From a bacterium (lineage in GTDB: Bacteria > Actinomycetota > Acidimicrobiia > Acidimicrobiales > CATQHL01), in the NCBI GenBank assembly GCA_026706565.1, contig JAPOYM010000071.1:1-62142 (forward strand): a DNA stretch of 62,142 bases. The letters run 5' to 3'. The notes under the pieces are model-generated. The model was not told the origin of the DNA. It ran no database searches and saw nothing but the letters and a program-made list of their open reading frames with translations. Positions 34,563 to 55,188 of the stretch are shown here, one piece after another (within the stretch, counting starts at the first letter, position 1; every line of letters begins with the position of its first letter). A program made the position numbers and the translations under genes.

Positions 34563-34831
34563 GCCGGCGATGCTAACCGCCCCGGTGAGCGCCCGGTACC
34601 GAGCTGTTGGACGCGATCTGCTGCACGACCTTTGATCCACCCCAGGCGCGACTCGGTCTGGGCGGCGAAAGGTTTGTGTCTGTCCTTGCCCTCTCCGGCC
34701 CCCTGGACCGAGTCGCGCCTCCTGAAGGTCGAGACCCACATACCAGATTGGGAGGTTCCGCCCATGAACCGAGACTCCGCCGACCAGCCGGTCCTGGCCA
34801 ACTCGGTCGGGGCCGTGATCCGTCCAGGGTT

Positions 34832-34847
34832 TGGACTGACTTTGCTG
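34832..34847 (+). promoter_or_regulatory. -24/-12-like motif copy 1: TGGACTGACTTTGCTG
   Basis: TGGAC-N5-TTGCTG, 83 nt upstream of the small ORF at 34930. Confidence 0.35.
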
Positions 34848-35122: not shown

Positions 35123-35138
35123 TGGACGCGCCTTGCTG
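35123..35138 (+). promoter_or_regulatory. -24/-12-like motif copy 2: TGGACGCGCCTTGCTG
   Basis: Same motif, also sharing TTGCTGTAGG with copy 1. A 10-bp perfect hairpin follows. Confidence 0.35.
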
Positions 35139-35257: not shown

Positions 35258-35273
35258 TGGACGCTGCTTGCTG
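35258..35273 (+). promoter_or_regulatory. -24/-12-like motif copy 3: TGGACGCTGCTTGCTG
   Basis: Same motif, 102 nt upstream of the small ORF at 35375 and 278 nt upstream of the gene at 35551. Confidence 0.35.
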
Positions 35274-36810: not shown

Positions 36811-36858
36811 ACCGTCCGAACCCTGAACTGCCCGACCACAAACGAAAGGACAGTCCCC

Positions 36859-37665: not shown

Positions 37666-37670
37666 CCCCG

Positions 37671-39284
37671 ATGGCCGCAACAAGACGCTGGAGCCGCGTC
37701 CGAGAACTCGCCCGCCGGGCCGACCGGCAGCACGAGTCCCCAGCACTCGGTCCCAGCGTCCGCCCCACCGACACGCACCTCGCCGGGGGCCACCCACGCG
37801 TCCGCGTCGTCGGTCCCAGCGACGGCCGACGGGACGCGGTGCGGATCGCCGAGCCGGCGTACACCGAAGCCATCGCGTCGCTCGGCGGTCTGCCCGCCGA
37901 AGCGGGCGGGCCCCTCGGCGGCGACCACCGCACGGGCATCGTCTCAGAGTTCTACCTCGACGAGTCCGCGCGGCGCGACGAGCACAGTTACTCCCCCGAC
38001 GTAGAGACCCTGAACCGGCTCTTCCGCACACAGTGGAACCCCCGGGGCCTATCTCTGCTCGGCTTCGCGCACTCGCACCCCCCGGGCGTGCCGGTGCCTT
38101 CGACCGGCGACCGGCGATACGCCCGAAGACTCCTCGCCGCCCTTCCCTCCCTGGACCGACTCCAGCTGCCCATCGTCGAACAGTCCCGCGTCGGCAACCA
38201 CATAGCCCGGGGTTTCGCCGTCGTCGACGACGGTTCATCGCTGCCGGCGGCGCAGCGAGTCTCCCTCGACACGGTCCCCGACTGCCCGACGCGCCGCGAG
38301 CCCGACCCCGCGACGTTCCTCCGAGCCTCGACCAGCTACGAGTTGGCGATCATGGCCAACACCCGCGTCGTGCTCGTCGGAGTCGGAGGGGCCGCCCAGC
38401 ACGCCGAGCACTTGGCGCGGTGCGGCATCGGCGAACTCGTCCTCGTCGATCCGGACCGGGTGGAGCCCCCGAACGTTGCAACCCAACAGGCCTATCTGCG
38501 GGACGCGGGGCGATCGAAGGTCGGCGCCCTCGCCGAACGCCTCACCGACATCAGCCCAATCCTGCGCGTCGCCGCGGTGCCCCACAGCGTCCAACAGCTA
38601 GATCTCCCGACACTGCGAATGCTGCTGCATCGGCCGTTGTTCCCCGGCGAGCCGATCGCTCCCAGACTCACGGTCACATGCGGATTCACCGACGACTTCT
38701 GGACGCAGGCCGAGGTCGCTCGCATCGCGTTGCAGGAAGGCACACCCCTGCTCGCGGGCCAAGTCTACGAGCAAGGATGCGGGGCGGAGATCGTCTTCGT
38801 GGCGCCGGGCCACACCGCCGCCTGTCACCGATGCGTCCTCGGCTCTCGCTACTACTCCTATCTGGCCGGGTTCCGCAACGACGTCACCAGCGCCGGCGCA
38901 CCTCTGTTCGCCACCGAGAGGCTCAACGCAACCAAAGCGATCGTGATGATGGCGATGGTCCACGGACTGCACCCCGACGCGGACCGCGGCCACCCCGCCA
39001 CCGCGAGATTCTCGACGCTGTTCGAGACCATCCGCGAGCGGAACCTCATCCAGATCCGCCTCACCCCTGACTTCGAGTCGATCCTCGGCGTCAGCGTCTT
39101 CGAGCGCACACTCACCGGCGCCGACAGCACACGCGTCGTCTGCGACGAGACCCTCTGGCACCCCCAGACACCGACTGCCCATCCCCCCTGCCCCGATTGC
39201 GGCGGCACCGGCGACCTCGCACAACTCGCCGGCACCAACATCGCCCCCCTGACGCGACCTGAGAACACGGAGAGGACACCATGA
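37671..39284 (+). CDS. JAB/JAMM metallopeptidase fused to an E1-like (ThiF/MoeB-family) adenylation domain
   Basis: The JAMM motif is intact: E(AGGPLGG)...HSHPPGVPVPSTGD, which fits HxHx7Sx2D (38070-38111). E1 Rossmann VVLVGVGGAAQH...LVLVDPDRVEPPNV. Cys pairs CHRC and CPDC. Confidence 0.8.
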   Translation: MAATRRWSRVRELARRADRQHESPALGPSVRPTDTHLAGGHPRVRVVGPSDGRRDAVRIAEPAYTEAIASLGGLPAEAGGPLGGDHRTGIVSEFYLDESARRDEHSYSPDVETLNRLFRTQWNPRGLSLLGFAHSHPPGVPVPSTGDRRYARRLLAALPSLDRLQLPIVEQSRVGNHIARGFAVVDDGSSLPAAQRVSLDTVPDCPTRREPDPATFLRASTSYELAIMANTRVVLVGVGGAAQHAEHLARCGIGELVLVDPDRVEPPNVATQQAYLRDAGRSKVGALAERLTDISPILRVAAVPHSVQQLDLPTLRMLLHRPLFPGEPIAPRLTVTCGFTDDFWTQAEVARIALQEGTPLLAGQVYEQGCGAEIVFVAPGHTAACHRCVLGSRYYSYLAGFRNDVTSAGAPLFATERLNATKAIVMMAMVHGLHPDADRGHPATARFSTLFETIRERNLIQIRLTPDFESILGVSVFERTLTGADSTRVVCDETLWHPQTPTAHPPCPDCGGTGDLAQLAGTNIAPLTRPENTERTP

Positions 39285-39619
39285 CCACCGTATTGGAGAA
39301 CATCAAGTACCGAGCCTCGAACGGTGAGGACTTCATGTTCGACTTCGAACTGCGCGACGACGGTTGGCGCGTGCACATAACCAGCCAACCCCGCTACCGC
39401 CACCGGAGCGCGAGCGCGCACGACACTCACCGCCTCGGCCGGGCTGAACGTCCCTACATCTGCTGGACCAACCCGATAAACGGACTCGACGACGCCTTCG
39501 GCGTCGCCGCCCTGTGGGCGGAAGCGACCCTCGTGTACATCGCGACCGGTCGCTTCAACGCGCCGCGCCGCTTACCGCGACTCCACGATCTCACCGGACT
39601 CACCCGGCTCAGCCGCTAG
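39281..39619 (+). CDS. small conserved-looking protein, possible E2(UBC)-like with HDTH...PYICW
   Basis: ATGA overlap with the JAB-E1 gene. 112 aa. The H-x-x-H...x-I-C-W spacing recalls HPN...C of UBC folds. The call is weak. Confidence 0.3.
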   Translation: MTTVLENIKYRASNGEDFMFDFELRDDGWRVHITSQPRYRHRSASAHDTHRLGRAERPYICWTNPINGLDDAFGVAALWAEATLVYIATGRFNAPRRLPRLHDLTGLTRLSR

Positions 39620-39652
39620 CCCCCGATCAATCCACCCCGAAAGGACGATCCC

Positions 39653-40381
39653 ATGGCCCGTCAACGCCCCACCCTGTTCCTCGAGACCAACGACTGGGAC
39701 ACTCACACCGCGCCGCGCCGATGGTTGGCCGTGATCCCCGTCATCGCGCTGGTCGTCGCCGCCGCCGCCATGTGGCAGCTCAACCGCCCCGAGCCGATCG
39801 GGGCGGCCTCGACCCTGCCGGTCTGCGACTCTGACCACCCGCACCTAACCGTTGTTGTCCTCGATGTCTCGCCGTCGGTGATCAGCGCGGACGGCGCCGA
39901 CCCCGACGGTCGCAGCTTCGACGAAGCCCGAGAGCTCGCGCGGCTGCTTGCCGCCGACCCCTGCACCCCCGACGACCGGTTCGCCGCCATCGTGTTCGGC
40001 GCAGAAGCGATTCTGCAAATGCCGCCGACACTGCTGTCGCAGAGCAGCGACATCGCCGCCGGCCTCCGCAACCAGGGCTACGCCAACCTCGGGGACTCCA
40101 CCGACATCTCAGCCTCAATCCGCACGGTGGACTCCATCGCATCCGATCATCCGCACCACGAACTCTCAGCCATCTGGCTCTCAGACATGATGGGAGACCC
40201 GTTCACCGAACAACACCTCCGAACCCTCGCCGCCGAGCACGCCTACCTCGTCGCGCTCGGTGACTACGACCCGTACTTCAACCAGTACTTCGACGCAGTC
40301 CACGAGATCGTCACGGTCAAACCCGGTGCCGTCGCACACGCACTCACCGAGAGCATCTCCCGCACCCGCGGCGCGCCCTGA
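39653..40381 (+). CDS. membrane-anchored von Willebrand factor type A (vWA) domain protein
   Basis: N-terminal TM (WLAVIPVIALVVAAAAMW). MIDAS-like VVVLDVSPSV (DxSxS at 39863-39877). Further vWA strands: AAIVFG and AIWLSD. Confidence 0.65.
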   Translation: MARQRPTLFLETNDWDTHTAPRRWLAVIPVIALVVAAAAMWQLNRPEPIGAASTLPVCDSDHPHLTVVVLDVSPSVISADGADPDGRSFDEARELARLLAADPCTPDDRFAAIVFGAEAILQMPPTLLSQSSDIAAGLRNQGYANLGDSTDISASIRTVDSIASDHPHHELSAIWLSDMMGDPFTEQHLRTLAAEHAYLVALGDYDPYFNQYFDAVHEIVTVKPGAVAHALTESISRTRGAP

Positions 40382-40434
40382 CCACCAACCACCGAACATC
40401 CAGCCACCAGACGCGAAAGGAAACCTCCACCGAC

Positions 40435-41781
40435 ATGAATTGCGCCAACATCCCGCGCCTCATCCGCAGCACCGCGATCGCGTCCGCAGTCGCCGTCATC
40501 GCGCTCGCCTGCGACCCCGATCACGCCACAACCCACGACACCAGCCCGGCCGAACGGGTCGCCGAACAGGCAGGCGAACAGGCAGCCGGCACCGTCGCGG
40601 CCGGCAGGACCGCTCTTCCCGAAGCGGTCGTGCTCCCCACCGGAATTCCCGGCATCAGCGAACTCACTCCACCAACACCGGACACCGTCGTCCCGCCACC
40701 CCCCGACCCCGCACCGGCGGCGCCCACAAGCGACCCCCCCGTCGTCCCGCCACCCCCCGACCCCGCACCGGCGGCGCCCACAAGCGACCCCCCCGTCGAC
40801 CGCCCACCGCCGACGTCCGCAACCGAACCGGATGCACCCCCGGTCGCCCCCGACCTTCCGCCATCCACGGCCGGACCGCCCGAGCCCGCGCCCCCGCCAC
40901 CGCCCGCAGACCCCGAACCCCATACCTGCGTCGCCTACCGCATAGACGACGTGCTCTTCAACAGCGCCGCCGCGGAACTCGCCCCCGGCGCCGAGGACAG
41001 CCTCGCCGCCGTCGCCGCGCTAATCGCCGACGACGCCCGAGTCTCCGTCATCGGCCACACCGACTCGCTGCCGTCAGCGATCGGCAACCAGCGACTGTCC
41101 GAACTCCGCGCCCAGACTGTCGCCGAGGCCCTGATCGGCGCGGGCCTGAACCCCGAATCGGTGACCGAGATCGCCGGCAGAGGCGAAACCGAACCCATCG
41201 CCGACAACGGCACCGACGAAGGCCGGCGCCTCAACCGGCGCGTCGAGGTATACATCAACTGCGCCGCCCGACAACACCGAAGCGCCGCGTCCGAAGCAGG
41301 CCGAGGCAGCGCCGCTGCGAACCCGACCACCCCCGCAGACCCGACGACCGACGACCCCGAGGCCGTGCCAGCGGGCCCCAGAAGCGAACCCGAGGCCGAT
41401 ATGCTAGGCATGGTCGGCGAGTTCCGAGCGGACCTCGAACTGCAGCCACTTCTGCACCATCAACAGCTAGCATCCGTCGCCCGTGCCTGGTCAGCCACAA
41501 TGGACACAACCGGACGGCTAGAGCACAATCCTGACTACACAAACCAGTATCCCACGGGTTGGCTGTCAGCTGCCGAGAACATCGCGTTCGTAACAGTACC
41601 CACAACCTCACCAGAATCGCTCGCAGAGGCAACCATGATCGCCTTCCAAGGACTTGTCAACAGCCCACCGCACTACAAGAACCTCACCAACCCGACGTTC
41701 ACCCACATAGGAATCGGCATACACCTAAGCACCGATACCCTGTGGGTAACCCAGAACTTCGCGCACTATCCACCCGAATAG
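40435..41781 (+). CDS. lipoprotein with Pro-rich linker, OmpA-family peptidoglycan-binding domain and C-terminal CAP/SCP (PR-1-like) domain
   Basis: Lipobox IALAC. OmpA_C motifs: VIGHTDSLPS..GNQRLSELRA..V and NRRVEVYI. CAP motifs: HNPDY, NIAF, SPPHYKNL, THIGIG. Confidence 0.75.
   Translation: MNCANIPRLIRSTAIASAVAVIALACDPDHATTHDTSPAERVAEQAGEQAAGTVAAGRTALPEAVVLPTGIPGISELTPPTPDTVVPPPPDPAPAAPTSDPPVVPPPPDPAPAAPTSDPPVDRPPPTSATEPDAPPVAPDLPPSTAGPPEPAPPPPPADPEPHTCVAYRIDDVLFNSAAAELAPGAEDSLAAVAALIADDARVSVIGHTDSLPSAIGNQRLSELRAQTVAEALIGAGLNPESVTEIAGRGETEPIADNGTDEGRRLNRRVEVYINCAARQHRSAASEAGRGSAAANPTTPADPTTDDPEAVPAGPRSEPEADMLGMVGEFRADLELQPLLHHQQLASVARAWSATMDTTGRLEHNPDYTNQYPTGWLSAAENIAFVTVPTTSPESLAEATMIAFQGLVNSPPHYKNLTNPTFTHIGIGIHLSTDTLWVTQNFAHYPPE
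40687..40794. repeat. perfect 54-bp tandem duplication (18-aa VVPPPPDPAPAAPTSDPP x2) inside the linker
   Basis: 40687-40740 is the same as 40741-40794 by eye. Confidence 0.85.
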
Positions 41782-41786
41782 CCACC

Positions 41787-44700
41787 ATGTCACCCAGCGC
41801 CTCGTCGCGGCTCGACCAGCACCACCTCGCATCGCTGCACAAACTCACCGACGAGCACCTAATCAAGCTCCTCAATGAGATCCTTCCGCTGAAATGCGCT
41901 CACGGCTCCGTCGAAGCGGAACGCCTGGAATGGCATGACCCATGCTGGGAGACACGCCCCGCCTTGAAGCGCGTGCGACGATTGTCCCTAGAACTCTCCG
42001 TCAACAACCCCAACGGGCGTAGCCGTAGCAGGGTCACCCTGCCGTTTCTCTGGCCATTGGGCGAGGAGGCTTGCGCCGAACCGTACCCGCTAGAATATGT
42101 GCGCCTCGGCGGCCCTGCGACGTTCATCGACGCGCTACCGAAGGTGGCGGTAAGCCAAAGAACGTACCGTCCCGGGTTGCACTTGTTTCGTCACGATTTC
42201 CGCTACTCGGGTCGTCAATATTCGGGCCGACGACTAGTTCTTATGCCGGACATCGGCCCGAGCATACGAATCTACAAAACAAGCATCGGACGAGATCAGA
42301 CAAGCAGTGAATTCGACCCAGCTCCAGACGACCACGCGCCTCCACTCGCCAAGTCGCCCCCAAGGTCGTCGTTCCGAGTGTCGATCTATGGGCTAGGAAG
42401 CGGGACAGCTGTCTTTGAGAATGCCGAACTCATTGGTTGCGCCGATTCCGGCCAGACTCGCGCGCCTCACGGGACGCCCCATACCGCTAACCTAGGGGCC
42501 CTCTGTGATCGTCTCCTAGGACAGAATCGACCCCCCTTGGCATTTTTCTCGGACGCGACAAGGGAGCGGATCTCCGAAGCGGGAATACGACTCGACGATT
42601 CCAGCTTACAGGACCTATGCGGCCTCTTGTTCAGCTTGGATAAGGATGGAGCTGAACCTCCGGAGTATGGACATGAACTCTCCGAAGCGACTCTCCGGAC
42701 GCAGCACCACGGCGACATACTGGAGTCGATTCTTGTGGAATCGCTGCTAGCGGCTGTGGAGCGATTCCATCTCGGCAAGCCCGATCAGGCCGCGGCGCTC
42801 GGCTCTCTACTGAAGTCCATGTTCCAGCAGATTTACAACCGGATGCATCGCGGCGGAGACCGCCAGCCTGCACTGCTGGTGACCGACGACGACCGTAACA
42901 CGCTCGCCAACCTCGAGGCCCGGCGAAAGACGACTCGATACAGTCCCGAGATTCCCCGAGAGATTCGGTACTGGCTCTGGACCCGTGACATCGACCCAAG
43001 CGACCGTCGCCGTCTCTGCCCGCTCCAAACTCCCGAGTCAGCCGACCTTGGATACGTGCGATTCTTGGCCCTCGGAGATGGATATGCCGACGAGCACTCA
43101 GGGATCGCCGATCTTGACGCGCCCGACTTGGACCTTGACTCGAGCGACTTGAGCGCCGCCGCCTCGCTCATTCCGTTCATCAATCACAACGACCCGACGC
43201 GCTCGGCCATCGGCTCAAAGAACCTGAAGCAGGCGCTGCCACTCGCAGGGGCGAGCGCGCCGCGAATCCGGTCGGGCACCGAAGCGGCCCTCGCCGAAGC
43301 ACACGGCACGGCCCGTCTGCCCGCAGGGCCCGACGCGACTGTTCTAGAGGTATTCGAGGACCGGATCATCGTGCAGCGCCAGGAAGGCGCCCCGCGTGGG
43401 GCGGAAGTCCTACCGTTCGGCTACCCGCACCCCACCGGCCACACCGCCGACGGGCGCTGGAAACTGCTCACGACACCCGGCGACACCCTCAGCGCAGGAA
43501 CCGTGTTCGCGCACGCCCCCGACGTCGTCATCGACTGCGGCGAACCCACTCTCGCTCTCGGCACCGACGTGCTCGTGGCGTTCACGCCCTGGTTGGGGAT
43601 GAACTACGAGGACGCCATCGTCGCCAGTGAGGCTGTCGTCGACCGGATGGCTTCGTTGCATTCTCTTCGCATCACCGAGCCGCTCGGCGCCTATGAGACT
43701 CTGCGGCCGTCGGTCGAGGCGGGTGCCGAGGTCGTCGCCGGCGACGAACTGCTGAAGATCCTCGGCCCCGACTCGAAGACGCGTCGCTCCGTCGTCGCCC
43801 CCGAGTCCGGAGTCCTTGAGGAGGGCCCGCGCGTCGAACCGGTCATCGGCCCTCGTGAGAGCGGTGACAGTGACGACGCGGTCTCGGGCGAGATCGTCAT
43901 CCGGCTCAGGACCAGCAGGCGTCTCGCGGTCGGGGACAAGCTAACCAACCGCCATGGCGGCAAGGGGGTGGTTTCTGCGATCCTGCCCCCATCGAGCATG
44001 CCGAAACTCCCCGACGGACGCCACGTTGAGATGATTCTCAACCCGCTCGGAGTGATCCGGCGTTTGAACATCGGCCAACTGTTTGAGACCCATGAGAGCC
44101 TGCTCGCCGACCTCGAGGAGGGCGGACCCCGCATCGTCGGCCGCCGGATGAGCCCGCAGCGTCGGGGCGAACTCGCCTCCGCCCTGGCCGAGCGTGGCGC
44201 CCCGGGCGGGCGGCTGGTGCTGGAATGCGCCGACGGCACCGTGCTGGACCGCCACGGCGGCGTTGTCGCGGGTTGGCAGTACATGCTGAAACTGGACCAC
44301 CTGGTGGCGGACAAGCGCAACGAGCGTCTCGCGGCGTTCGCCGGGCCGCGCGACCGGCAGCCCGTCCGCGGCTCGACGTTCGCCGGCGGCGTCCGGCGGG
44401 GAGGCGCCAAACGTTGCGGCGAAATGGAGATCTGGGCCCTTCGGGCCAAGGGCGCATCAGAGTTCTTGGATGAGACCCTCACTGCACGCAGCGGTTTCGC
44501 CCCCGGCACGAATCCCACCCTCGCCAGCGTCGACGCCCACCTGAGAACTGCCCAACTCGCTGTTGACCACACCACCGGGGCGGTCAAGCTACTGGACGCA
44601 CGAGACACCAAGGCCCTGGCGCCCGTCATCTGCGAGGAGATCACCGAACCTACGACGAACACTCCCCAGTACGCCTCCGCCGCCAGCCACGGCCTCTACC

Positions 44701-47222
44701 GCCCCGATTGCCACGGTGACTTCGAGAAGGCCGGAGCATCTTGTGCCTGCGGTTCCGTGTGGCAATCCGGCGCCAGATGCGCGTCCTGCCACACGACGCC
44801 CCGACCCGACCCACACCCGGAGCGCTTGGCGGTGCGATACCACATCAAGTTGCCGGCACCGGTGAAGCATCCGTGGTTCCGGCCGTCGCCGAGTCAAGGC
44901 GCAAGCTCTTGCGTAGCCTCGCGCATTCATCGCGAACACCGCCGGGCTGCCGAGCTCGAGCACCTGTGCTGTGCGAATCATGATCCGGACGTCGTTCGGC
45001 ACCGTGACGAGAACGGTCGATCCTCCGCGCTCGAACGCGTTCGGGAATCGCTCGCCGAAGAGGGTCACCAACCGATTGCGATGACCCACGACTGTCGTCG
45101 CGCGCGATTGTACGTGTTCACCGACCGTGGCCGACTCGCGGAGTTCGACCTTGCCGAAGGCGCGGCGGGGGACTTCGTGCGGGATTGGTTCATCGAGCAC
45201 CGACGCGCCGGGAATCCCGAATTGCCCCCGGATGATGTCCAGTTCCTTGCGCTCGAACCCAACGGATTCCCGGTCATCAACTACGGCAAGGACGACCAGA
45301 GCAGGGATATTCTCCGGACCGCCACTCCGGCGTTGCACGTCGTTCCGATACTGCCCCCGGCCTATCGCAGGTTCGGGTACGAACCCCTTGACACCCTCTA
45401 CGAGCGACTCATCCGTCTAGTCGCTCTGGTGGAAGAGAACCGAGAGGCGGCAGTGATGGGGGTGGAACGGCAACTTGTTCGGGCCATCCTCGGCGGACCG
45501 ACCGACAAGCCGGATCACGGCACCATTTCCGGTCGGCTGAACGGCAAGCACGGCCTGATTCGCCGTGGACTGAGAGGACGGCACAACAACTCTGTCGCCC
45601 GAAACGTCATCACGCCCCAGACAACGCTCGGCCTCGAGGAGGTCGGGCTGCCGTCTGGCACCATGGCGGAGCTCCAACTCCGCGACGGGGACGTCGTTGT
45701 CGTCAATCGCCAGCCCACCCTACGCCCATCGAACGTCGTGGCGCTACGCGCCAGGGCCCACGACGGTGACCACGTCGCACTTCACCCAATGATGTCGAAG
45801 CAGTTGGCCGGCGACTTCGACGGCGACGAAGTCACGTTGCACTGCCCCAGCGACGGACAGGTGGCGGTCGACACCTGGAGGCGTCTCAGACCTACGAGCG
45901 AACTCCTCAACGACACCGATGGTCAGCCCACCATGGCGCCCGACCTCGACGTCGCCCTCGGAGTCCACCTTCTCTCGATGTCGGATGCCGGTCGCGTCGA
46001 ACTCTCGAAGCTCCTGGACGGTGGCGAGCAGCCGGCCGGCAACGGGTCAGCCGGAGTCGAGTCCGCTGTCGGCGCGGACCAAGCCGTCGAACTGGTCCGG
46101 GCCGCCTACAGTGCCCTCGCAATCGATCCAGAACGCGACCCTTGCGCGGTCATCGAGGCGCTCTTCGAGGCGACGACCCGCGCCTGCCTGGGTTGGTCCG
46201 CTTCGCTGCTCGACGACGCGTTCCTGGAAGACGGCGCGCGGCTGAGGATGCTGGAACGTACCGGCAACGACGAACTGGACGGTCCTCGGTCCGACTGGCT
46301 CGACGAGGCGATCGCAGCAGGCGTCGCGGGAGGGGCAGGCGGTCTGCGCCAACTATTCGTCGAACGCGGCAGCCTCCCGACCTTCACACCCGGCAAGTCG
46401 ACGCCGCGAGTCGGGTCGTGCTTCCTCGACGGCCTCTCGTCCGGCGACGTCTTCGCGACAGCTCCCGGGGCGCTGGCCGCGCTGGTCCAGAAGAAGCTCG
46501 TGACGCCTCAGGCAGGACACGTCACAAAACGGCTGGCAGACGCGCTGTACGACTTTGTCGTGGCAGCGGAGGATTGCGGCGTCGGGCCCGATGCCACAGG
46601 ACACCGCGACGCTCTTCATTGCGCCCTCGACGGATCTTGCTGCGCGGCGTGCGTCGGCCCGCTCCCCTCGGGCAGGAGCGCAGATGTCGGGGATTTCATC
46701 GGGCTGCGAGCCGCGATGCTGATCGGCGAACGCTGCACCCAGAAAGCCATGAAGACCTTCCACGGAGGCGGCACCAGCGACGACGTCCGCGGCATTGTGC
46801 CCGAACTCGAGGCAGCGTTCGGCTTTCGCGCCAACCACCCGCAGGAGTCAGGGCTCTCGTTCAGGGACGCATTGAAGGCCGACGATCCTCCAGCGACGCT
46901 ACGCCGTCTCGCCGGACAGACCGCCGCGGCCCTCGATGGCGGCGTGCATGAATCCTTGATCTGCATAGCTCTGAGGCGGGTACACGACCTCGCCCGACAA
47001 GCCGAAGCGGAGGCCGCTGTCGGTCCGCTCCCTCGGGTGCCCGCAGGACCGAACAACCAAGCCGCCAGAGCGAATCCACTCCTGCACGCATCCACCATTG
47101 GGCACCTTCGACCCATCCTGGATTCCGTCGAATGGCCGGTACGCCACGGCCCTTCCGGCCAGCAGTTGCGCGATGCCTACTGGCCCGTCGCCCGTCCTGC
47201 CCGACCCGAAGCCAGGCGGTGA
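41787..47222 (+). CDS. single-chain RNA polymerase: fused, shortened beta (RpoB-like) + beta-prime (RpoC-like) homologue, 1811 aa
   Basis: Beta motifs occur in canonical order: KVAVSQRTYRPGL (cf ERVIVSQLHRSPGV), CPLQTPESADLGYV (cf CPIETPEG.NIGLI), SLIPFINHNDPTRSAIGSKNLKQALPL, NYEDAIV, GDKLTNRHGGKGVV (43932-43973), LNPLGVIRRLNIGQLFETH, YMLKLDHLVADK and CGEMEIWAL. Beta-prime motifs follow: Zn ribbon CHG..CACG..CASC, HIKLPAPVKHPWF, VPILPPAYRRF, NGKHGLIRRGLRGRHNNSVARNVI, NRQPTLRPS, AGDFDGDEV (DFDGD at 45813-45827), a bridge-helix-like GHVTKRLADALYDFVVAAEDCG, and a trigger-loop-like LIGERCTQKAMKTFHGGG. Confidence 0.85.
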   Translation: MSPSASSRLDQHHLASLHKLTDEHLIKLLNEILPLKCAHGSVEAERLEWHDPCWETRPALKRVRRLSLELSVNNPNGRSRSRVTLPFLWPLGEEACAEPYPLEYVRLGGPATFIDALPKVAVSQRTYRPGLHLFRHDFRYSGRQYSGRRLVLMPDIGPSIRIYKTSIGRDQTSSEFDPAPDDHAPPLAKSPPRSSFRVSIYGLGSGTAVFENAELIGCADSGQTRAPHGTPHTANLGALCDRLLGQNRPPLAFFSDATRERISEAGIRLDDSSLQDLCGLLFSLDKDGAEPPEYGHELSEATLRTQHHGDILESILVESLLAAVERFHLGKPDQAAALGSLLKSMFQQIYNRMHRGGDRQPALLVTDDDRNTLANLEARRKTTRYSPEIPREIRYWLWTRDIDPSDRRRLCPLQTPESADLGYVRFLALGDGYADEHSGIADLDAPDLDLDSSDLSAAASLIPFINHNDPTRSAIGSKNLKQALPLAGASAPRIRSGTEAALAEAHGTARLPAGPDATVLEVFEDRIIVQRQEGAPRGAEVLPFGYPHPTGHTADGRWKLLTTPGDTLSAGTVFAHAPDVVIDCGEPTLALGTDVLVAFTPWLGMNYEDAIVASEAVVDRMASLHSLRITEPLGAYETLRPSVEAGAEVVAGDELLKILGPDSKTRRSVVAPESGVLEEGPRVEPVIGPRESGDSDDAVSGEIVIRLRTSRRLAVGDKLTNRHGGKGVVSAILPPSSMPKLPDGRHVEMILNPLGVIRRLNIGQLFETHESLLADLEEGGPRIVGRRMSPQRRGELASALAERGAPGGRLVLECADGTVLDRHGGVVAGWQYMLKLDHLVADKRNERLAAFAGPRDRQPVRGSTFAGGVRRGGAKRCGEMEIWALRAKGASEFLDETLTARSGFAPGTNPTLASVDAHLRTAQLAVDHTTGAVKLLDARDTKALAPVICEEITEPTTNTPQYASAASHGLYRPDCHGDFEKAGASCACGSVWQSGARCASCHTTPRPDPHPERLAVRYHIKLPAPVKHPWFRPSPSQGASSCVASRIHREHRRAAELEHLCCANHDPDVVRHRDENGRSSALERVRESLAEEGHQPIAMTHDCRRARLYVFTDRGRLAEFDLAEGAAGDFVRDWFIEHRRAGNPELPPDDVQFLALEPNGFPVINYGKDDQSRDILRTATPALHVVPILPPAYRRFGYEPLDTLYERLIRLVALVEENREAAVMGVERQLVRAILGGPTDKPDHGTISGRLNGKHGLIRRGLRGRHNNSVARNVITPQTTLGLEEVGLPSGTMAELQLRDGDVVVVNRQPTLRPSNVVALRARAHDGDHVALHPMMSKQLAGDFDGDEVTLHCPSDGQVAVDTWRRLRPTSELLNDTDGQPTMAPDLDVALGVHLLSMSDAGRVELSKLLDGGEQPAGNGSAGVESAVGADQAVELVRAAYSALAIDPERDPCAVIEALFEATTRACLGWSASLLDDAFLEDGARLRMLERTGNDELDGPRSDWLDEAIAAGVAGGAGGLRQLFVERGSLPTFTPGKSTPRVGSCFLDGLSSGDVFATAPGALAALVQKKLVTPQAGHVTKRLADALYDFVVAAEDCGVGPDATGHRDALHCALDGSCCAACVGPLPSGRSADVGDFIGLRAAMLIGERCTQKAMKTFHGGGTSDDVRGIVPELEAAFGFRANHPQESGLSFRDALKADDPPATLRRLAGQTAAALDGGVHESLICIALRRVHDLARQAEAEAAVGPLPRVPAGPNNQAARANPLLHASTIGHLRPILDSVEWPVRHGPSGQQLRDAYWPVARPARPEARR

Positions 47223-48268
47223 CTGAATTGATCACCTCCGGAGTGCGAGCGGGGCGCGACCGGCGACGCAGCGCAAAGCCAGACACCGATGCTCTCACAC
47301 AACCGAACGCTCGCCGCCTAGCTCGAGTCCTGGTATCCACTATTGCTTCACCGACTGCACACGAGATCCAGCACCTCGATAGCGACGAACCGCTTGATGA
47401 CGATCCCTTGGATATGGTGCCCGACGGCTGGGAGGACGAAGAGCCGGATGCTCCGACGGCCTTCGACGAGGCGTCGCCGACGGCCTCGGGCCGCACTGCC
47501 CCACCCACAGCGGTTCTTGAGTTCTTCGTCCGCCCGGGGCCGCTGTCGGATGTCGCCGTCGAGGTGAACGCTCCGCTGCCCCAAGAGCATCACCTCGGAG
47601 TGGCTGGGCTTCCGCTGGTTCAAGCCGAATGGTTGGAACGACGTCGACACCTTGAGGCCGTCGGCGTCTGCATCCTGAACCGTCAACTACCCGCCATTCA
47701 GTCGACCGACCCGCGTCATGCCTACAGATCCTTGCGCCCGATGACCAACGCTGATTTGAACGAATCCGCTGGCACACGCGGCTCGGGCTGGGCTTCCCGC
47801 AATCGGACGGCTCCGGTCGCCTGCCCCTGGGGCCTCGTTCGACTGGAGTTCTTCACTTGGGGGATCGGTCCCGGACGCGTCGCCGTGTACGAAGCGCTGC
47901 TCAACGCTGTGTTGATTGACGGCGCTGCCGGTGGAGACACCGCCATCGCCCGCGACGCGCGCGACCAAGCCATAGCGGCTCTCGAAACATCGTCCGACTC
48001 TGCTCTGAGGCAGTCGACGCTCTCAGAGCAGGCACGCACGCAGCTCCCAGCTCTCGACAGCGTCCGTAAGTTGGTTTCCGTCGCTCGTTCGCTGGGAGCA
48101 CCTCAGACCTCCGCCTACATCGCGACCCTTCGACGCGACTCATTGTTCTGGAGCGACGACCTAATCGGAGCTAACGCCATGCTCGCCTCATCGCTTAGCG
48201 ACAGAGGCCTCCAGTTGGCAAGGTTCGCCGTGGCTGGATGGGAGGGGGGCAAGCAGTGGATGCCTTGA
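47219..48268 (+). CDS. sigma-54 (RpoN)-like protein, divergent and shortened (349 aa)
   Basis: GTG at 47219 overlaps the polymerase stop (GTGA). There is an acidic N-terminal segment. LERRRHLEAVGVCILNRQ, LRPMTNADLNE and SRNRTAPVACPWGLVRLEFF align by eye with E. coli RpoN LEARNDTLLRVSRCIVEQQ, MKPMVLADIAQ and [22 protein letters not shown]. Confidence 0.7.
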   Translation: MTELITSGVRAGRDRRRSAKPDTDALTQPNARRLARVLVSTIASPTAHEIQHLDSDEPLDDDPLDMVPDGWEDEEPDAPTAFDEASPTASGRTAPPTAVLEFFVRPGPLSDVAVEVNAPLPQEHHLGVAGLPLVQAEWLERRRHLEAVGVCILNRQLPAIQSTDPRHAYRSLRPMTNADLNESAGTRGSGWASRNRTAPVACPWGLVRLEFFTWGIGPGRVAVYEALLNAVLIDGAAGGDTAIARDARDQAIAALETSSDSALRQSTLSEQARTQLPALDSVRKLVSVARSLGAPQTSAYIATLRRDSLFWSDDLIGANAMLASSLSDRGLQLARFAVAGWEGGKQWMP

Positions 48269-50522: not shown

Positions 50523-53099
50523 TTATAGGGTTGGCTCAGCCATCTCCGCAGTACCACCGTGAGGGGCACTACCACGTTCCAGGTTCAAAACCCAAGCACC
50601 GACATCAGCGCGCGGCTGCGCTATTTCATCTCGCTGGTCATGCCATTGATGCATGTCCCCACTAGCAGACCCATGAGAGCCACTATCAGGCAACCCATCT
50701 GTTTCTTCCGCTGTCGCGTCTTCGGGAAGCCATCGTCCATAGTCGGACTTACTCCACTCTATCAAATAATTCAAGGGGTGTGGGGGATTCGGGCGTGGGA
50801 TCTCACTAATCTCAGCGTCCAGGCTCTCCAAGTAATTGCCCACACGCACTCCCTTAGGTTCCCATGGACGCGCGCCCCAGACCATATCGAAACCAAGACC
50901 GCTAACGCCAAGACCCTCAAGTCCCGCGTCGAGTCCCGCCTTTATCAAGCCGCCAAGCGTCGTGCTTGGAATCCAATTCCCGTCAACTTCGTTAAATGCC
51001 GCCGCCACCCACTCAAGGACATGCCCCTTAGCCTCCTCGCTGTTCCACCAGTCTCTCGCCGCAATCTCGCCGAATCGTGCCCTGTGCGCTTCAAGCCAAG
51101 ACGAAGCGCCTTCCCATCGAATTCGACCCTGCGGAGGTTCAACTTCATGGCGACTCTTCTTGACTCCAACATCTAGTCCACTCAGGTATTTGTGAAGAGC
51201 CTTGCCGCTCCCCGGCTTATCCCATGGCGGTTCGAATGGCGCCGAGCCAGAGCGACTACGATTAAGCGACTCTAATTTATGACGCAGGCTCTTGCCGAGC
51301 TCTCCGGGAGCAACCCCTTCGCTGGCATCTCTGCCTTGGAATTCCATGGCAAGCCAATATAGTATCCAGTCGCCACGCGGTATCCCAAGCCATTGTTCTT
51401 CACCTGGCTCGTCAGATCCCTCGTACATTAGATCCGCTGAAGCGGTCGAGTTCTCGCCGCCCTCCTTCGTTTTGGCGGTTACGGAATGCGATAGCGACTG
51501 ATCTGATACTGATTCCATTCTCGAGTATTCCGACGTTGCTTCGCGTGGATATAGTTTGCCCTCTTCGGATGTCGTAATCCCAGACAGTTCGGAAGGCCTA
51601 TTCGACCTCAGTGCCTCCTTATCAGCAGTCCCGGCAATATCAGACTTGTCTTTGGAGGCGTCGTGCTCCGGCTGTGCTCCACTTTCGCCACTCGTAACGC
51701 GAATCACTACCTCGGAGGCGTCGCGCGGCAGGTAGCCTCTCAATGGCTCCTCGCTCATAGGAAACTTATTCAACTCACGCTCAAGGAATTCCTTCATGTC
51801 GTTTTCGATGTCGGTCCTAACGTGTTTGTGCTTTTCATGACCGGTAAGGTCATCGGCCGGCGTTATCTGGATCGTGAGCTGATTGCCCTTATCCATCCCC
51901 GTCCCCTCCACAAATTTGACGCCGTATGCCTTGACTCGCTTATGCTTCTCCATGTGAGACTGCTGGTCTTTGATGTACTCGAAGTAGCCGCTAACATCGT
52001 CAGGGATCTTGCCAACAAATTCGTCGAACCACCTAACGTAGATATCGATCATTGAGTTAAGGTCGTTATGTTTTCCCAACATTTCGAGGATCATCTTGCT
52101 GTGGGCAGTAGCTTGATCTAGTTCAGCTGGATTATCAGCCGGACGCGTAAGTAGTTCCCGGACCATGCAGACGCGGAACTGAGCGCGACGCGTGTCCAGG
52201 TCGTCGCGGGTTCGGTGTTCACCCAGATCTACGGCGTCGGCGAGTCGAAGAATCGCCAGTAGTGTCTGAAAGGGCTTATAGTCGGCACCGCCGTGCTGAT
52301 TTTGAACACTTGCAACGTGCGTTTTCCAATCGTCGTGGAGTGAGTTTACTGTGAGCTTATATTGTACGACCAAGTTATGCGGTTTGACGTTTACATTCGA
52401 CCACCAACCCGCTGTGCTGCTAGGGCTCTTGTGTACTGCGTGAGGCGACAGCTTATCGTCTTCGTAGGTGATGTAATGCTCGCTACTACAGGAAGTCCAT
52501 CCTTGATGATGGGCACATAAAATGCCTGCGGGTACAGTTATCTCGTCTGCGTCTATTGGTATCGGACTTCCAGAAGAGCGTATCTCGAAGTTGTCAATGC
52601 CGTGAAGACTCTTCCAGTTAGGATTGAGCCAACTTTGCGATAGAAGTCCATGAAGTCGACGCACTTGGATCGAATGTGAAATCCAGCGTAGTTGCTTATC
52701 CTCTCCCTTTAGCACGCCGCCGCAATGGCCCCAGTCATGCAGCCACGAGGCCACTGACAGCCATACTAACTCAATGGGTTTGAAGTGGAGCTTTTTCCCT
52801 GGCTGCCAGTGCGGCTCAACAATCTCTGCCGCTAGGCGTTCTACGGACTTTGCGTGCTCCTCGTCGTGCGCAACTAACTCTGGGGCTAAGTTAACTGACC
52901 AGAGATTATTGTCGTGCCAAGTTTGGAGCCATTGGTCAAGCATCTCTGCGTAGGTTCGCAGTTCCGCGACGGTTGTGGCGGAGTCTTTGTCGCCGTCATC
53001 ACGGAGTCGGTCCGCGTTCTTGCTAAACAAGCGGGCAAACGCTGATCTGGGAGCGTCAACACGTTTGGATAAGTGTTGTTCCTTGGAGTGCTCAGACAT
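50523..53099 (-). CDS. HD-domain protein (N-terminal HD phosphohydrolase-like domain, long unknown middle, repeated C-terminal module)
   Basis: HDEEHAKSV, WLHDWGH, CAHHQGW and LRLADAVDLGEHR give an HD-superfamily pattern. 858 aa in an AT-richer segment. Confidence 0.7.
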   Translation of the reverse strand: MSEHSKEQHLSKRVDAPRSAFARLFSKNADRLRDDGDKDSATTVAELRTYAEMLDQWLQTWHDNNLWSVNLAPELVAHDEEHAKSVERLAAEIVEPHWQPGKKLHFKPIELVWLSVASWLHDWGHCGGVLKGEDKQLRWISHSIQVRRLHGLLSQSWLNPNWKSLHGIDNFEIRSSGSPIPIDADEITVPAGILCAHHQGWTSCSSEHYITYEDDKLSPHAVHKSPSSTAGWWSNVNVKPHNLVVQYKLTVNSLHDDWKTHVASVQNQHGGADYKPFQTLLAILRLADAVDLGEHRTRDDLDTRRAQFRVCMVRELLTRPADNPAELDQATAHSKMILEMLGKHNDLNSMIDIYVRWFDEFVGKIPDDVSGYFEYIKDQQSHMEKHKRVKAYGVKFVEGTGMDKGNQLTIQITPADDLTGHEKHKHVRTDIENDMKEFLERELNKFPMSEEPLRGYLPRDASEVVIRVTSGESGAQPEHDASKDKSDIAGTADKEALRSNRPSELSGITTSEEGKLYPREATSEYSRMESVSDQSLSHSVTAKTKEGGENSTASADLMYEGSDEPGEEQWLGIPRGDWILYWLAMEFQGRDASEGVAPGELGKSLRHKLESLNRSRSGSAPFEPPWDKPGSGKALHKYLSGLDVGVKKSRHEVEPPQGRIRWEGASSWLEAHRARFGEIAARDWWNSEEAKGHVLEWVAAAFNEVDGNWIPSTTLGGLIKAGLDAGLEGLGVSGLGFDMVWGARPWEPKGVRVGNYLESLDAEISEIPRPNPPHPLNYLIEWSKSDYGRWLPEDATAEETDGLPDSGSHGSASGDMHQWHDQRDEIAQPRADVGAWVLNLERGSAPHGGTAEMAEPTL

Positions 53100-53186: not shown

Positions 53187-53387
53187 TCAGTCGGTGGGGC
53201 GTTGGTTGCGGGAGGCGCGGTAGTCGTCGACCCAGATGCGGGAGCTGCGCCATTGGCCGTCGGCGCCGCGGTGGGCTTGGAGGCGGCCGCGTTGCGCGGC
53301 GGCCTGCAGGGCGGCGACTGAGAGGTCTGCTGCGGCGAGGGCACTCAGGGGCACGAGTCTTGCGGGTCCGGCGACGGCGGGCAGCAC
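53187..53387 (-). CDS. excisionase/MerR-type helix-turn-helix DNA-binding protein (Xis-like)
   Basis: 66 aa. LVPLSALAAADLSVAALQAAAQRGRLQAHRGADGQWRSSRIWVDDY resembles the excisionase-family HTH pattern (...G.L.a.r.Gg.Wri....ld.w). Confidence 0.45.
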   Translation of the reverse strand: MLPAVAGPARLVPLSALAAADLSVAALQAAAQRGRLQAHRGADGQWRSSRIWVDDYRASRNQRPTD

Positions 53388-53589: not shown

Positions 53590-55188
53590 GTGCGGTTCTT
53601 CAACACGGCGGGCCCCATCAAGCCGGACTGGCACTACTGCATCCCGCCGCTTGAACGCCTCGACGCCGACAACGTCCTCGGGCTGATCGGCCAGGGCAAG
53701 TACTTCGTGCTGCACGCGCCCCGCCAGACGGGCAAAACCTCCATCCTGCTGGCGCTGCGAGACCAGCTGAACGCCGACGGTGCCTACCGCTGCGTCTACG
53801 TGAACGTCGAGGTCGGCCAGGCCGCCCGGGAGGACGCAGCGTCGGCGATGCGGGCGATTCTGAGTCAGCTTGCCCGCGAGGCGGAAGTCGGTCTGGGCGA
53901 TTCGGCGGTCCAGGAGACGTGGACGGAGGCGCTGGACCGCTCCGGGCCGCACGATGCCCTGCAAGCAGTGCTGGCGCGCTGGACGTCGTCGGATCCTCGA
54001 CCGTCGGTGCTGCTGATCGACGAGATCGACGCTCTCGTGGGTGACACCCTGATCTCCGTGCTGCGGCAGTTGCGCTCCGGCTACGCCAACCGCCCGCGGC
54101 ATTTCCCACAGAGCGTGATCCTGTGCGGCGTGCGGGACGTGCGCGACTACCGCATCAGAGCGAGTTCCGAGCGGGAGATGATCACCGGCGGCAGCGCCTT
54201 CAACATCAAGGCGGAGTCTCTGCGCCTCGGCGACTTCTCCGCCGCGCAAACCGAGAGTCTGCTCGCCCAGCACACCGACGAGACGGGCCAGCGATGGACC
54301 TCAGGCGCCCGCGCCGAAGTGTGGAGGCTGACCGCCGGCCAGCCCTGGCTCGTGAACGCGCTGGCCTACCGGGCCGCCGAGGCGATCTCGGACCACGACC
54401 GGCCGATCGGCGCCGAGGCGATCAGCGAGGCGCGCGAGCGGCTGATAGCCGGCCGCGAGACCCATCTGGACCAACTCGCCGACAAGCTCGCCGAGCCGCG
54501 GGTCCGGCGGGTCGTGGAGCCGTTGCTGAGCGGTCGCCTCGAGACCGAATCCGAGCGGATTCCCGTCGACGACCTGCAGTACGTGGCGGATCTGGGATTG
54601 GTGCGCACAGACGGCGGGGTGCGCATCGCCAACCCGATCTACGCCGAGGTGATCCCCCGAGAGCTCACCTGGACCACCCAGGTGATGCTCCCGTTCGAGG
54701 GGGCGTGGTACCTCCAGGACGGCGACCTTCGGGTGGACCGGCTGCTGGAGGCGTTCCAAGACTTCTTCCGGGAGCATTCCGAGCACTGGGTGCAGCGCTT
54801 CGAGTACCGGGAGGCCGGTCCGCAATTGCTGTTGCAGGCGTTCCTTCAGCGTGTGGTCAACGCGGGCGGGCGCATCGAGCGGGAGTACGGACTGGGACGG
54901 ATGCGCACCGACCTGCTGGTGCTCTGGCCGGCGGGCGAGGCGGGGGAGGCCGCCGCCGGTCGCCGGTCGCTCAGCCGCACCGTCGTGGAGTGCAAGCTGC
55001 TGTACGGGGGCCTTGAGCGGACCACACGGGAAGGTTTGGCGCAGACACGGGCCTACATGGACCGTTGCGGCGCCACCGAGGGCCACCTCGTGATCTTCGA
55101 CCGGTCCGAGGACCGAACCTGGGACGAGAAGATCTATCGGCGCACCGTCACGGCCGACGGCCCGCCCGTGACCGTCTGGGGCATGTGA
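53590..55188 (+). CDS. AAA-ATPase-like protein with C-terminal PD-(D/E)xK nuclease-like domain
   Basis: MRFFNTAGPIKPDWHYCIPP N-terminus, Walker A APRQTGKTS, Walker B LLIDEID, and a C-terminal D...ECK motif (RTDLLVLW...VVECKLL). Confidence 0.7.
   Translation: MRFFNTAGPIKPDWHYCIPPLERLDADNVLGLIGQGKYFVLHAPRQTGKTSILLALRDQLNADGAYRCVYVNVEVGQAAREDAASAMRAILSQLAREAEVGLGDSAVQETWTEALDRSGPHDALQAVLARWTSSDPRPSVLLIDEIDALVGDTLISVLRQLRSGYANRPRHFPQSVILCGVRDVRDYRIRASSEREMITGGSAFNIKAESLRLGDFSAAQTESLLAQHTDETGQRWTSGARAEVWRLTAGQPWLVNALAYRAAEAISDHDRPIGAEAISEARERLIAGRETHLDQLADKLAEPRVRRVVEPLLSGRLETESERIPVDDLQYVADLGLVRTDGGVRIANPIYAEVIPRELTWTTQVMLPFEGAWYLQDGDLRVDRLLEAFQDFFREHSEHWVQRFEYREAGPQLLLQAFLQRVVNAGGRIEREYGLGRMRTDLLVLWPAGEAGEAAAGRRSLSRTVVECKLLYGGLERTTREGLAQTRAYMDRCGATEGHLVIFDRSEDRTWDEKIYRRTVTADGPPVTVWGM

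Follow-up and report, generated by a model that had tools for sequence, protein, structure and literature searches.

The contig JAPOYM010000071.1 (GenBank assembly GCA_026706565.1), whose 62,142 nucleotides are referred to here as the window, carries three consecutive same-strand genes for a compact, single-chain RNA polymerase (RNAP), a 349-residue protein and an ATPase of the type known as bacterial enhancer-binding proteins (bEBPs). We find that the middle protein, hereafter the factor, belongs to the sigma-54 (RpoN) superfamily as a minimal and highly divergent representative, and that it is most likely the promoter-specificity subunit of the compact β–β′ polymerase encoded upstream. We see here a rare and new form of the sigma-54 system, one that has a polymerase of its own. 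A first-pass annotation of the sequence alone had proposed a divergent sigma-54-like factor at this position, a claim that was correct and understated.

The polymerase–factor–ATPase locus

The factor gene starts with a GTG codon at 47219 that overlaps the TGA stop codon (47220–47222) of the polymerase open reading frame (ORF) at 41784–47222, an arrangement that indicates probable translational coupling of the two genes. Both the ORF given in the first-pass annotation and its proposed coupling stand: the translation yields the 349 residues, the NCBI and ENA gene calls have the identical start, and a 4-nucleotide (nt) overlap of the polymerase and factor genes occurs in five of seven related loci (Table 1). 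The identical protein is deposited in both databases and is named ‘MAG: hypothetical protein [bacterium]’ in NCBI (MAG, metagenome-assembled genome).

The host, previously described as a probable actinobacterium, most likely belongs to the class Acidimicrobiia. The hydantoinase and AtuA proteins that flank the locus share clusters, formed at 90% identity or higher, with MAG proteins labelled ‘[Acidimicrobiia bacterium]’, and a related locus occurs in a Candidatus Aldehydirespirator genome. The G+C content of the window is 62–75% and falls to 0.54–0.62 at 48–54 kb; a scan of the window for Rfam families and tRNAs found none.

The gene upstream of the factor, already read as a fused RNAP in the first-pass annotation, encodes a fused β–β′ two-barrel RNAP. 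Its ORF is open from 41559, with the start most likely at ATG 41784. It matches Rpb2_6 (E = 3.4e-39) and Rpb1_2 (E = 1e-14), as well as Rpb2_7 and Rpb1_5, in Pfam, and aligns with β (E = 1.3e-52) and β′ (E = 7e-28) sequences in the PDB. Matches to the NCBIfam rpoB, rpoC and rpoBC models lie far below their cut-offs. The DFDGD (Mg-binding) and GDK..RHG.KG motifs are present, and the catalytic sequences read LAGDFDGDE and GDKLTNRHGGKGV.

The downstream gene, which overlaps the 3′ end of the factor gene and was missing from the first-pass annotation, is the strongest contextual clue to the nature of the factor. Its product carries a Sigma54_activat domain (Table 1), an AAA+ core with Walker A/B and R-finger elements in which GDSGTGKS, FLDEFG and GNVRELE occur, and its best NCBIfam and PADLOC matches (RtcR, NorR, NifA and PspF) are confined to the AAA+ core. 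Where bEBPs have the GAFTGA sequence, its L1 loop reads G275-T-Y-T-G-V280. The pattern G-x-[YFW]-T is found in eight orthologues, with T278 invariant, and a tyrosine at the phenylalanine position of GAFTGA occurs in a minority of bona fide bEBPs (PMC7057263). The C-terminal 80 residues are conserved within the ATPase family, and the N-terminal domain (215 residues) has no family match. The ATPase is most similar to RtcR, a bEBP with a CARF domain, but solely over the AAA+ core.

Homology to the sigma-54 DNA-binding region

The factor belongs to a rare, unannotated family. Word-indexed homologue searches, whether with the single protein or the family profile, returned essentially the query alone, whereas an exhaustive HMMER scan of 1.84 billion representative proteins defined a family of 21 members (E = 1e-226 to 5e-4). 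The family alignment (A1; a second alignment of the family is A2) shows a variable N terminus, an acidic segment carrying PDGWE and then the conserved block L..Q..A......A....L.PMTQ..LA......S..SR.R..LI.CPWG.VPL.FF.W. This is followed by a segment of the form P..S....AR.V....D.LRK.VPV and, at the C terminus, by an invariant RG..L.R.A.AG(W). The family hidden Markov model (HMM) found only a chance PAAR match among PDB sequences (E = 0.5), and the factor has no match in PADLOC.

Four independent lines of evidence (Pfam, profile–profile comparison, hmmsearch and structure) agree on the likeness to sigma-54. First, 6 of 20 family members match Pfam Sigma54_DBD (PF04552) collinearly (E = 1.1e-4 to 0.04), and in the relative P0012 the match extends to profile position 141 of 160. 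All six are sub-threshold, the best scoring 22.4 bits against a gathering cut-off of 22.8, and some relatives also have weak generic helix–turn–helix (HTH) matches (HTH_31 and HTH_3). The first-pass annotation had named the lack of a significant Sigma54_DBD match as a ground for refutation; read strictly, this touches the window protein, which has none, whereas the six relatives match just under the threshold.

Second, hhalign paired A1 with E. coli sigma-54 alone at E = 0.0039 (E. coli residues 335–429). For a broader comparison, we aligned E. coli sigma-54 with the products of eight diverse plasmid-borne rpoN genes (nine sequences); plasmids were the source because a homologue search seeded with E. 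coli RpoN gave near-identical E. coli entries. Against this alignment, A1 scored 62.5 (probability 94%, E = 1.4e-7) over 181 columns, with factor residues 71–285 matching E. coli residues 264–468. Control comparisons with one reversed and 20 column-shuffled sigma-54 alignments scored 10–17 (E = 0.27–0.95). Unprompted, hhalign paired ERRRHLEAVGVCILNRQ with SRNDTLLRVSRCIVEQQ, LRPMTNADL with MKPMVLADI, SGWASRN with ESTISRV, and CPWGLVRLEFF with SPRGIFELKYFF. These are the matches that had been made by eye in the first-pass annotation, which placed the likeness to the RpoN DNA-binding region in the C-terminal half; it extends over the C-terminal two thirds.

Third, hmmsearch of the family with a sigma-54 HMM paired ‘alkPLvlkdvAealglheSTvSRvtankylatPrGvfelkyff’ with ‘ALRPMTQRALARRAALGESAISRR-RRIIVECPWGLTPLEFFF’, and its alignments of the family show the pattern PM(T/L)..LA....ES.(I/V)SR....(I/V).CPWG..PL.FF.

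Fourth, an AlphaFold2 model built on A1 reached a mean predicted local distance difference test score (pLDDT) of 79 and a predicted TM-score (pTM) of 0.74, and most 10-residue blocks of residues 131–340 average above 90. A single-sequence model (pLDDT 35) was useless and was discarded. In a Foldseek search of the PDB with the A1-based model, the best 22 matches were all sigma-54/SigN chains, with probabilities up to 1.00, E values of 0.03–1.5 and 123–228 aligned columns. The TM-scores were only about 0.3, as expected because this is a flexible multi-domain protein.

Could the factor instead be an unrelated HTH protein whose resemblance to sigma-54 is convergent or generic? The window protein has no direct database match, and the sub-threshold Pfam scores and the weak HTH_31 and HTH_3 matches of its relatives would suit such a protein. 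However, the 181-column match takes in the hairpin, the long helix and the PxG..L.FF hairpin, all of which lie outside a generic HTH, and the shuffled and reversed controls are far weaker. In addition, the first unrelated structural match has a probability of only 0.06, and a neighbouring bEBP-type ATPase together with a −24/−12-like motif would be an unlikely coincidence. We therefore regard a generic HTH protein as highly improbable, and homology of the factor to the sigma-54 DNA-binding region as well supported, a conclusion that we hold with high confidence.

Domain architecture of the factor

Using published definitions of the sigma-54 domains (PMC7057263), we divided the factor into the segments listed in Table 1. 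Four elements are common to the factor and sigma-54: the hairpin that follows the core-binding domain (CBD), the extra-long helix (ELH), the HTH and the PxG..L.FF hairpin. The first of these precedes the long helix of the factor, pairs with the sigma-54 hairpin between the CBD and the ELH, and is covered by the hhalign match to E. coli residues 264–330. In sigma-54, the ELH-HTH is the reader of the −12 element. Within the CPWGxVxLEFF hairpin, G205 is invariant, and F211 and F212 are found in at least 90% of A1.

A degenerate RpoN domain may also be shared, with low confidence: KPLSD would correspond to the ‘P..S’ element and the LRK.V element to ARRTV (LRKxV in the factor, with R283 in at least 90%). 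The first-pass annotation had equated DSVRKLV with ARRTVAKYR; this falls in the right region of the alignment, but the pairing is of low confidence, and a comparison with sigma-54 of just the C-terminal 135 residues is not significant (E = 0.14–0.21). A weak alternative alignment sets RG..L.RFA.AGW against GIxIARRTVAKYR (E = 0.14).

The ends of the protein are distinctive. The PDGWE segment and the last roughly 55 residues are specific to the factor family. The C-terminal extension, with invariant R329, G330 and G340 (RG..L.RFA.AGW), is a candidate polymerase-docking module or alternative RpoN-box equivalent. In the acidic linker, which AlphaFold2 predicts to be disordered, D69, G70, W71 and D77 are conserved in A1 and A2. 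An acidic stretch reminiscent of region II had been noted earlier and is indeed present; the likeness is one of composition plus the family-specific PDGWE, and the stretch may or may not be homologous to region II. The N-terminal helix is weakly conserved, with A35 invariant among close relatives. It may be a functional stand-in for region I of sigma-54, to which it has no profile match.

Neither region I nor the CBD could be identified in the first-pass annotation, and our searches agree. Sigma54_AID (PF00309, the activator-interacting domain (AID) of region I) has no Pfam match in the window protein or its relatives, and the N-terminal 100 residues compared with the sigma-54 profile give E = 0.95. 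Sigma54_CBD (PF04963) likewise matches neither the window protein nor a single one of its 20 relatives; the hhalign match begins past the CBD, at E. coli residue 264, and the AlphaFold2 model passes from the acidic linker to the hairpin with no room for a CBD. We thus reject homology to region I and the CBD.

A conserved three-gene cassette

We examined eight loci, the window and seven related ones. The bEBP-type ATPase gene lies directly 3′ of the factor gene in all eight, and the fused polymerase gene lies 5′ of it in seven. The polymerase cannot be checked at the remaining locus (L003) because the contig is cut just upstream, leaving only a 93-amino-acid (aa) gene fragment. Overlaps of 4 nt between cassette genes are found in most loci.

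The surroundings of the cassette are partly shared and partly variable. The window and L002 have OmpA, CAP, VWA and JAB-E1 proteins and a convergent HD-CE protein in common. By contrast, the variable flanks include a leucine-rich repeat (LRR) protein in L012 and L014, other ATPases in L013, and Cas10-palm, RAMP and Csx19 genes in L015; STAND, DUF4143, Fic and TrwB-like genes also occur near cassettes. Such surroundings suggest a defence or conflict island, or else a mobile setting. In L015 (11509–17348), type III CRISPR-like genes come after the cassette, namely Cas10 palm, two RAMPs and Csx19. Two kinds of intergenic sequence were also observed. C/A-rich, G-poor leaders with CCAACC-type repeats that end in AAGGAG precede many genes of the related operons (L012 3333–3394, L013 789–927 and L014 2983–3095), and four 23-bp direct repeats with a TTGAA-N3-TGCGG core lie between the DUF4143 ATPase and Fic genes of L002 (16856–16937) and resemble iterons or operators.

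Relatives of the factor are rare. Two scans of GTDB species genomes yielded one locus, on the chromosome of Ca. Aldehydirespirator sp. (Acidimicrobiia, Actinomycetota). Pattern scans of JGI metagenome contigs, IMG/VR viral contigs, PLSDB plasmids and GenBank phages found no relatives, the BFVD viral structures contain no match to the factor family, and full-text literature searches found no description of a cassette of an RNAP, a sigma-54-like factor and a bEBP.

Actinomycetota has been described as a phylum that ‘effectively lacks’ RpoN (PMC12316311). That study lists (table S8) three actinomycete isolates with weak sigma-54 matches, judged non-functional by its authors: Modestobacter marinus MODMU_2490 and Citricoccus E7744_01085 with CBD-DBD (DBD, DNA-binding domain), and Alloactinosynnema CRK59238 with AID-CBD-DBD. 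These three may be further divergent sigma-54-like factors.

The factor could also serve the housekeeping RNAP of the host, with the fused polymerase being an unrelated enzyme, for example a primase-like or RNA-synthesizing effector. Canonical sigma-54 does work with the housekeeping core, and the fused enzyme keeps β′ zinc-finger and clamp-helix-like segments similar to those of cellular RNAP, such that the surfaces of the two enzymes may resemble each other. Yet the factor lacks the CBD, the main core-binding determinant of sigma-54 (PMC7057263), its translational coupling to the fused polymerase is conserved, and the host phylum offers no sigma-54 system to plug into (PMC12316311). A partnership with the host enzyme is thus quite improbable, and we favour the cognate fused polymerase as the partner of the factor.

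Candidate −24/−12-like promoters

The sequence TGGAC-N5-TTGCTG, listed in the first-pass annotation as a set of sites that the factor might bind, is present at the head of the operon in three exact copies (starting at 34832, 35123 and 35258) and one single-mismatch copy (34608). All four are on the + strand within 660 bp. The TGGACTGACTTTGCTG site has the top position weight matrix (PWM) score and lies 83 nt 5′ of the 60-aa lipoprotein-like ORF; TGGACGCGCCTTGCTG and TGGACGCTGCTTGCTG follow, and TGGACGCGATCTGCTG is the weaker copy. A consensus scan found no sigma-70-like promoter at the operon head.

The relaxed core recurs in the related loci, where the exact TGGAC-N5-TTGCTG is not present. 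In intergenic DNA of the seven loci, we counted 7 copies of GGAC-N5-YTGC against 0.80 expected, a number reached in 0/2000 Markov simulations, and the intergenic density is about 7 times the coding density. Six of the seven copies are oriented towards a gene start 42–266 nt downstream. The similarity of sites from these loci runs past the core (TTGCTGTA and TTGCTATAGG).

The canonical sigma-54 promoter is TGGCACG-N4-TTGCW. Like it, the candidate motif has two parts, GG and TTGC, separated by about one helical turn. It retains the TTGC(T) element, has GGAC and not GGCAC upstream, and its GG-to-GC spacing is 1 bp shorter. A scan for the canonical TGGCAC-N5-TTGCW found no enrichment. The pattern, with TTGC kept and GGAC altered, parallels the conserved HTH and remodelled RpoN domain of the factor.

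The sites, four of them in a cluster at one locus, could just as well be operators. Together with the loss of region I and the CBD, through which sigma-54 acts as a polymerase subunit and is targeted by bEBPs, and with a homology demonstrable for the DNA-binding portion alone, they would fit a sigma-54-derived DNA-binding regulator (a repressor, activator or anti-activator) acting at GGAC-N5-TTGCTG, and not a sigma factor. The fused polymerase would then initiate alone or with another factor, and the AAA+ protein would act on something else. Several observations make this unlikely. Gene order and the 4-nt overlaps with the polymerase and ATPase genes are conserved wherever the contig allows a check, and the ATPase keeps a GAFTGA-like loop, the only known target of which is sigma-54. 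Elsewhere, moreover, the sites are single, oriented and 40–270 nt 5′ of genes, which fits promoters, and a regulator would leave the conserved N- and C-terminal modules without explanation. We therefore continue to read the factor as a promoter-specificity subunit and the sites as its candidate promoters.

Two other arrangements of such sites were observed. In L014 (32–523), two inverted GCGGACTGGTTTTGCTGTAACGGG copies face outwards to divergent genes and flank about 350 bp in which GC-rich tandem repeats of 44 bp occur; this may represent two divergent promoters together with an upstream activating region. In the window (53349–53364, + strand), GGGCACGAGTCTTGCG is a near-canonical sigma-54-type GGCAC-N5-TTGC sequence about 225 nt 5′ of the STAND NTPase gene (53590–55188) and within a 66-aa ORF called on the minus strand; its occurrence may be due to chance.

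Operon genes and other features of the window

Upstream of the polymerase, genes on the same strand fill 34930–41781 (Table 1), and the same set adjoins the cassette of the closest relative (L002). The JAB-E1, 112-aa, VWA and OmpA-CAP genes, which are kept beside the L002 cassette, form a set related to ubiquitin-like conjugation and the envelope. The 23-codon ORF (MAAEDEKPSAPVDVDTIPAGTFH) has a strong Shine–Dalgarno sequence (AAAGGAGGG) and high third-position G+C; lying just 3′ of promoter-motif copies 3 and 4 and ahead of the 419-aa gene, it could encode a leader peptide or small protein. The convergent HD-CE protein is a candidate effector.

Table 1 Features of the window. Positions are those of the window; residues are those of the factor.
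Feature	Position	Strand	Evidence
Sigma-54-like factor gene, 349 aa, without region I and CBD	47219..48268	+	ORF, translation, family HMMER, hhalign, Foldseek
GTGA start/stop overlap with polymerase gene	47219..47222	+	Sequence; 4-nt overlaps in L001, L002, L012, L013 and L015
N-terminal helix, residues 29–43	47303..47347	+	AlphaFold2; residues 31–40 pLDDT about 78
Acidic linker DSDEPLDDDPLDMVPDGWEDEEPD, residues 54–77, with family PDGWE motif	47378..47449	+	A1, A2
Beta-hairpin, residues 100–116	47516..47566	+	AlphaFold2 strands 100–105 and 111–116
Extra-long helix and helix–turn–helix, residues 132–194	47612..47800	+	hhalign, hmmsearch, pLDDT above 90
CPWGxVxLEFF beta-hairpin motif, residues 202–212	47822..47854	+	hhalign, hmmsearch; counterpart of sigma-54 TPRGxFELKYFF
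Degenerate RpoN-like helical domain, residues 218–293	47870..48097	+	hhalign, low confidence, to E. coli residue 468
Family-specific C-terminal extension, residues 295–349	48101..48265	+	A1; pLDDT about 90
Compact single-chain β–β′ RNA polymerase, about 1812 aa	41784..47222	+	Pfam, NCBIfam, PDB, motifs
bEBP-type AAA+ ATPase, 531 aa	48238..49833	+	Sigma54_activat (PF00158) 8.6e-28, 97.6 bits versus cut-off 20.2
Weaker copy of promoter motif, TGGACGCGATCTGCTG, CTGC not TTGC	34608..34623	+	Pattern, PWM
Candidate promoter TGGACTGACTTTGCTG	34832..34847	+	Exact match; top PWM score 29.2
Candidate promoter TGGACGCGCCTTGCTG	35123..35138	+	Exact match, PWM
Candidate promoter TGGACGCTGCTTGCTG	35258..35273	+	About 100 nt 5′ of ATG with strong ribosome-binding site at 35375
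60-aa lipoprotein-like ORF	34930–35112	+	
23-aa ORF	35375–35446	+	
419-aa membrane/coiled-coil protein	35551–36810	+	
268-aa secreted protein	36859–37665	+	
JAB-E1 (ThiF) fusion	37671–39284	+	Pfam
112-aa protein	39281–39619	+	
VWA protein	39653–40381	+	Pfam
OmpA-CAP protein	40435–41781	+	Pfam
Convergent 858-aa HD-CE domain protein	50523..53099	−	Pfam HD-CE 9e-9; kept beside the module in L002; G+C lowered locally to 0.54–0.62

A perfect (100% identity) 77-bp tandem repeat of 4.0 copies (56617–56924) lies between a DUF4143/AAA_14 ATPase gene (55291–56553, − strand) and a nucleoside 2-deoxyribosyltransferase-like gene, and could be a real array or an assembly artefact. Positions 40001–42000 show strong strand asymmetry (GC skew −0.26, AT skew +0.29).

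Comparison with known systems

Canonical sigma-54 and its bEBPs, such as E. coli RpoN with PspF or NtrC, provide the closest parallel. The factor has the homologous β-hairpin, the ELH-HTH and, with low confidence, a degenerate RpoN domain, and its partner is a Sigma54_activat ATPase with a GAFTGA-type L1 loop. In contrast to canonical sigma-54, the factor has 349 residues and not about 477, has neither AID nor CBD nor the ARRTVAKYR box, and adds the PDGWE acidic segment and the roughly 55-aa C-terminal extension. Its gene is paired with a private fused β–β′ polymerase and not with the housekeeping core, and its host belongs to a phylum otherwise without sigma-54 (PMC12316311).

An RpoN paralogue on the Paracoccus pantotrophus plasmid NZ_CP058691.1 (378 aa; L011, 7812–8948) resembles the factor in being shortened, annotated as a hypothetical protein and carried on accessory DNA. 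It lies beside a sigma-54-dependent Fis-family regulator and an acetoin-catabolism operon. Unlike the factor, it is detectable by tblastn with E. coli RpoN (residues 124–468, 25% identity), retains the canonical ARRTVAKYR box and comes without a polymerase of its own.

The polymerase shares its one-chain β–β′ arrangement with the fused rpoBC of Helicobacter and Wolbachia, the models of which (PRK09603 and PRK14844; E = 8e-64 and 4e-60) are among its best NCBIfam matches. Those are essential housekeeping enzymes of about 2,840–2,890 aa that work with α, ω and sigma-70-family factors, whereas the polymerase here, of about 1,810 aa, scores 215 bits against an rpoBC cut-off of 5,372 and is encoded by an accessory gene in a variable island. 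Conceptually, the cassette is like the non-canonical multisubunit RNAPs of jumbo phages (PMC7598289), in which an accessory, reduced β/β′ enzyme has a dedicated specificity factor and does not depend on the sigma factors of the host. The jumbo-phage enzymes have split subunits, no sigma-54 homologue and no AAA+ activator, and searches of phage genomes, IMG/VR contigs and BFVD turned up no member of the factor family.

Proposed mechanism and significance

From the conserved gene order, the coupled translation, the loop motif and the promoter-like motif, we propose that the factor is the specificity factor of the adjacent polymerase, that the ATPase opens its closed complex and that GGAC-N5-TTGCTG is its promoter; we put our overall confidence in this joint reading at about 0.65. 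In this scheme, the HTH would read the conserved TTGC(T) ‘−12’ element, and the remodelled RpoN-like domain would recognize ‘GGAC’, the altered ‘−24’ element, at a distance 1 bp shorter than in TGGCAC-N5-TTGC. The factor would dock on its cognate polymerase through its new N- or C-terminal modules and not through a CBD. The holoenzyme would form a closed complex that the ATPase, once its N-terminal sensor domain is triggered, could open through the G-x-Y-T-G loop. The three genes may thereby constitute an orthogonal, activator-gated cassette for transcription of its own operon and of variable, defence-island-like genes nearby in Acidimicrobiia, which lack canonical sigma-54.

A number of results weigh against this proposal. 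The factor itself has no match in Pfam at E up to 1, none among PDB sequences (phmmer) at E up to 10 and only a meaningless one (0.28) in NCBIfam; its homology to sigma-54 comes from family-level profiles and a model based on no more than 20 sequences, and the E values and TM-scores of the Foldseek matches are marginal. Region I and the CBD, which are two of the three modules that define sigma-54, are missing. The RpoN box ARRTVAKYR is not conserved in the family and has two candidate counterparts (D.LRK.VP and RG..L.RFA.AGW). Gene context is what links the factor to the polymerase. The ATPase has no HTH_8 or Fis-type HTH in Pfam and no recognizable DNA-binding domain, in which it is unlike typical bEBPs, although the C-terminal Fis-type HTH is absent in some known bEBPs. 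As for the promoter motif, the PWM scan found no site in the window beyond the copies at the operon head, the relaxed core is not enriched over the whole window (9 observed versus 7.6 expected), and the TGGACGCGATCTGCTG copy, which lies inside the 5′ part of an opposite-strand DHDPS-family gene, is of doubtful function. Finally, all sequences behind the cassette come from MAGs and metagenomes.

To our knowledge, no bacterial sigma family other than sigma-54 depends on an ATPase for promoter opening, and the three-module architecture of sigma-54 (region I, CBD and DNA-binding domain) and its use of the housekeeping core have, as far as we know, been treated as invariant. If our proposal is correct, sigma-54-type promoter recognition would be separable from the canonical core-binding and activator-interaction domains, and the factor would be a natural minimal model of sigma-54 function without a CBD. 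The cassette is compact, with a single polymerase chain, one factor, one ATPase and a promoter of 16 bp. This is an attractive basis for orthogonal expression with tight off/on control in high-G+C hosts, and it offers structural biology a tractable, minimal setting in which to study activator-driven promoter opening.

For the biology of these bacteria, the implication would be that cells, and not only phages, carry accessory RNAP holoenzymes, of which this would be the first cellular example with its own sigma-54-type factor. We put about even odds on the broader view that the three genes are a portable, orthogonal enhancer-type machine in Actinomycetota: a switch that is gated by ATP, works independently of the host, reads its own GGAC-N5-TTGCTG promoters and controls variable genes of conflict or defence and of the envelope. 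The cassette may thus gate defence-island-like genes independently of host transcription.

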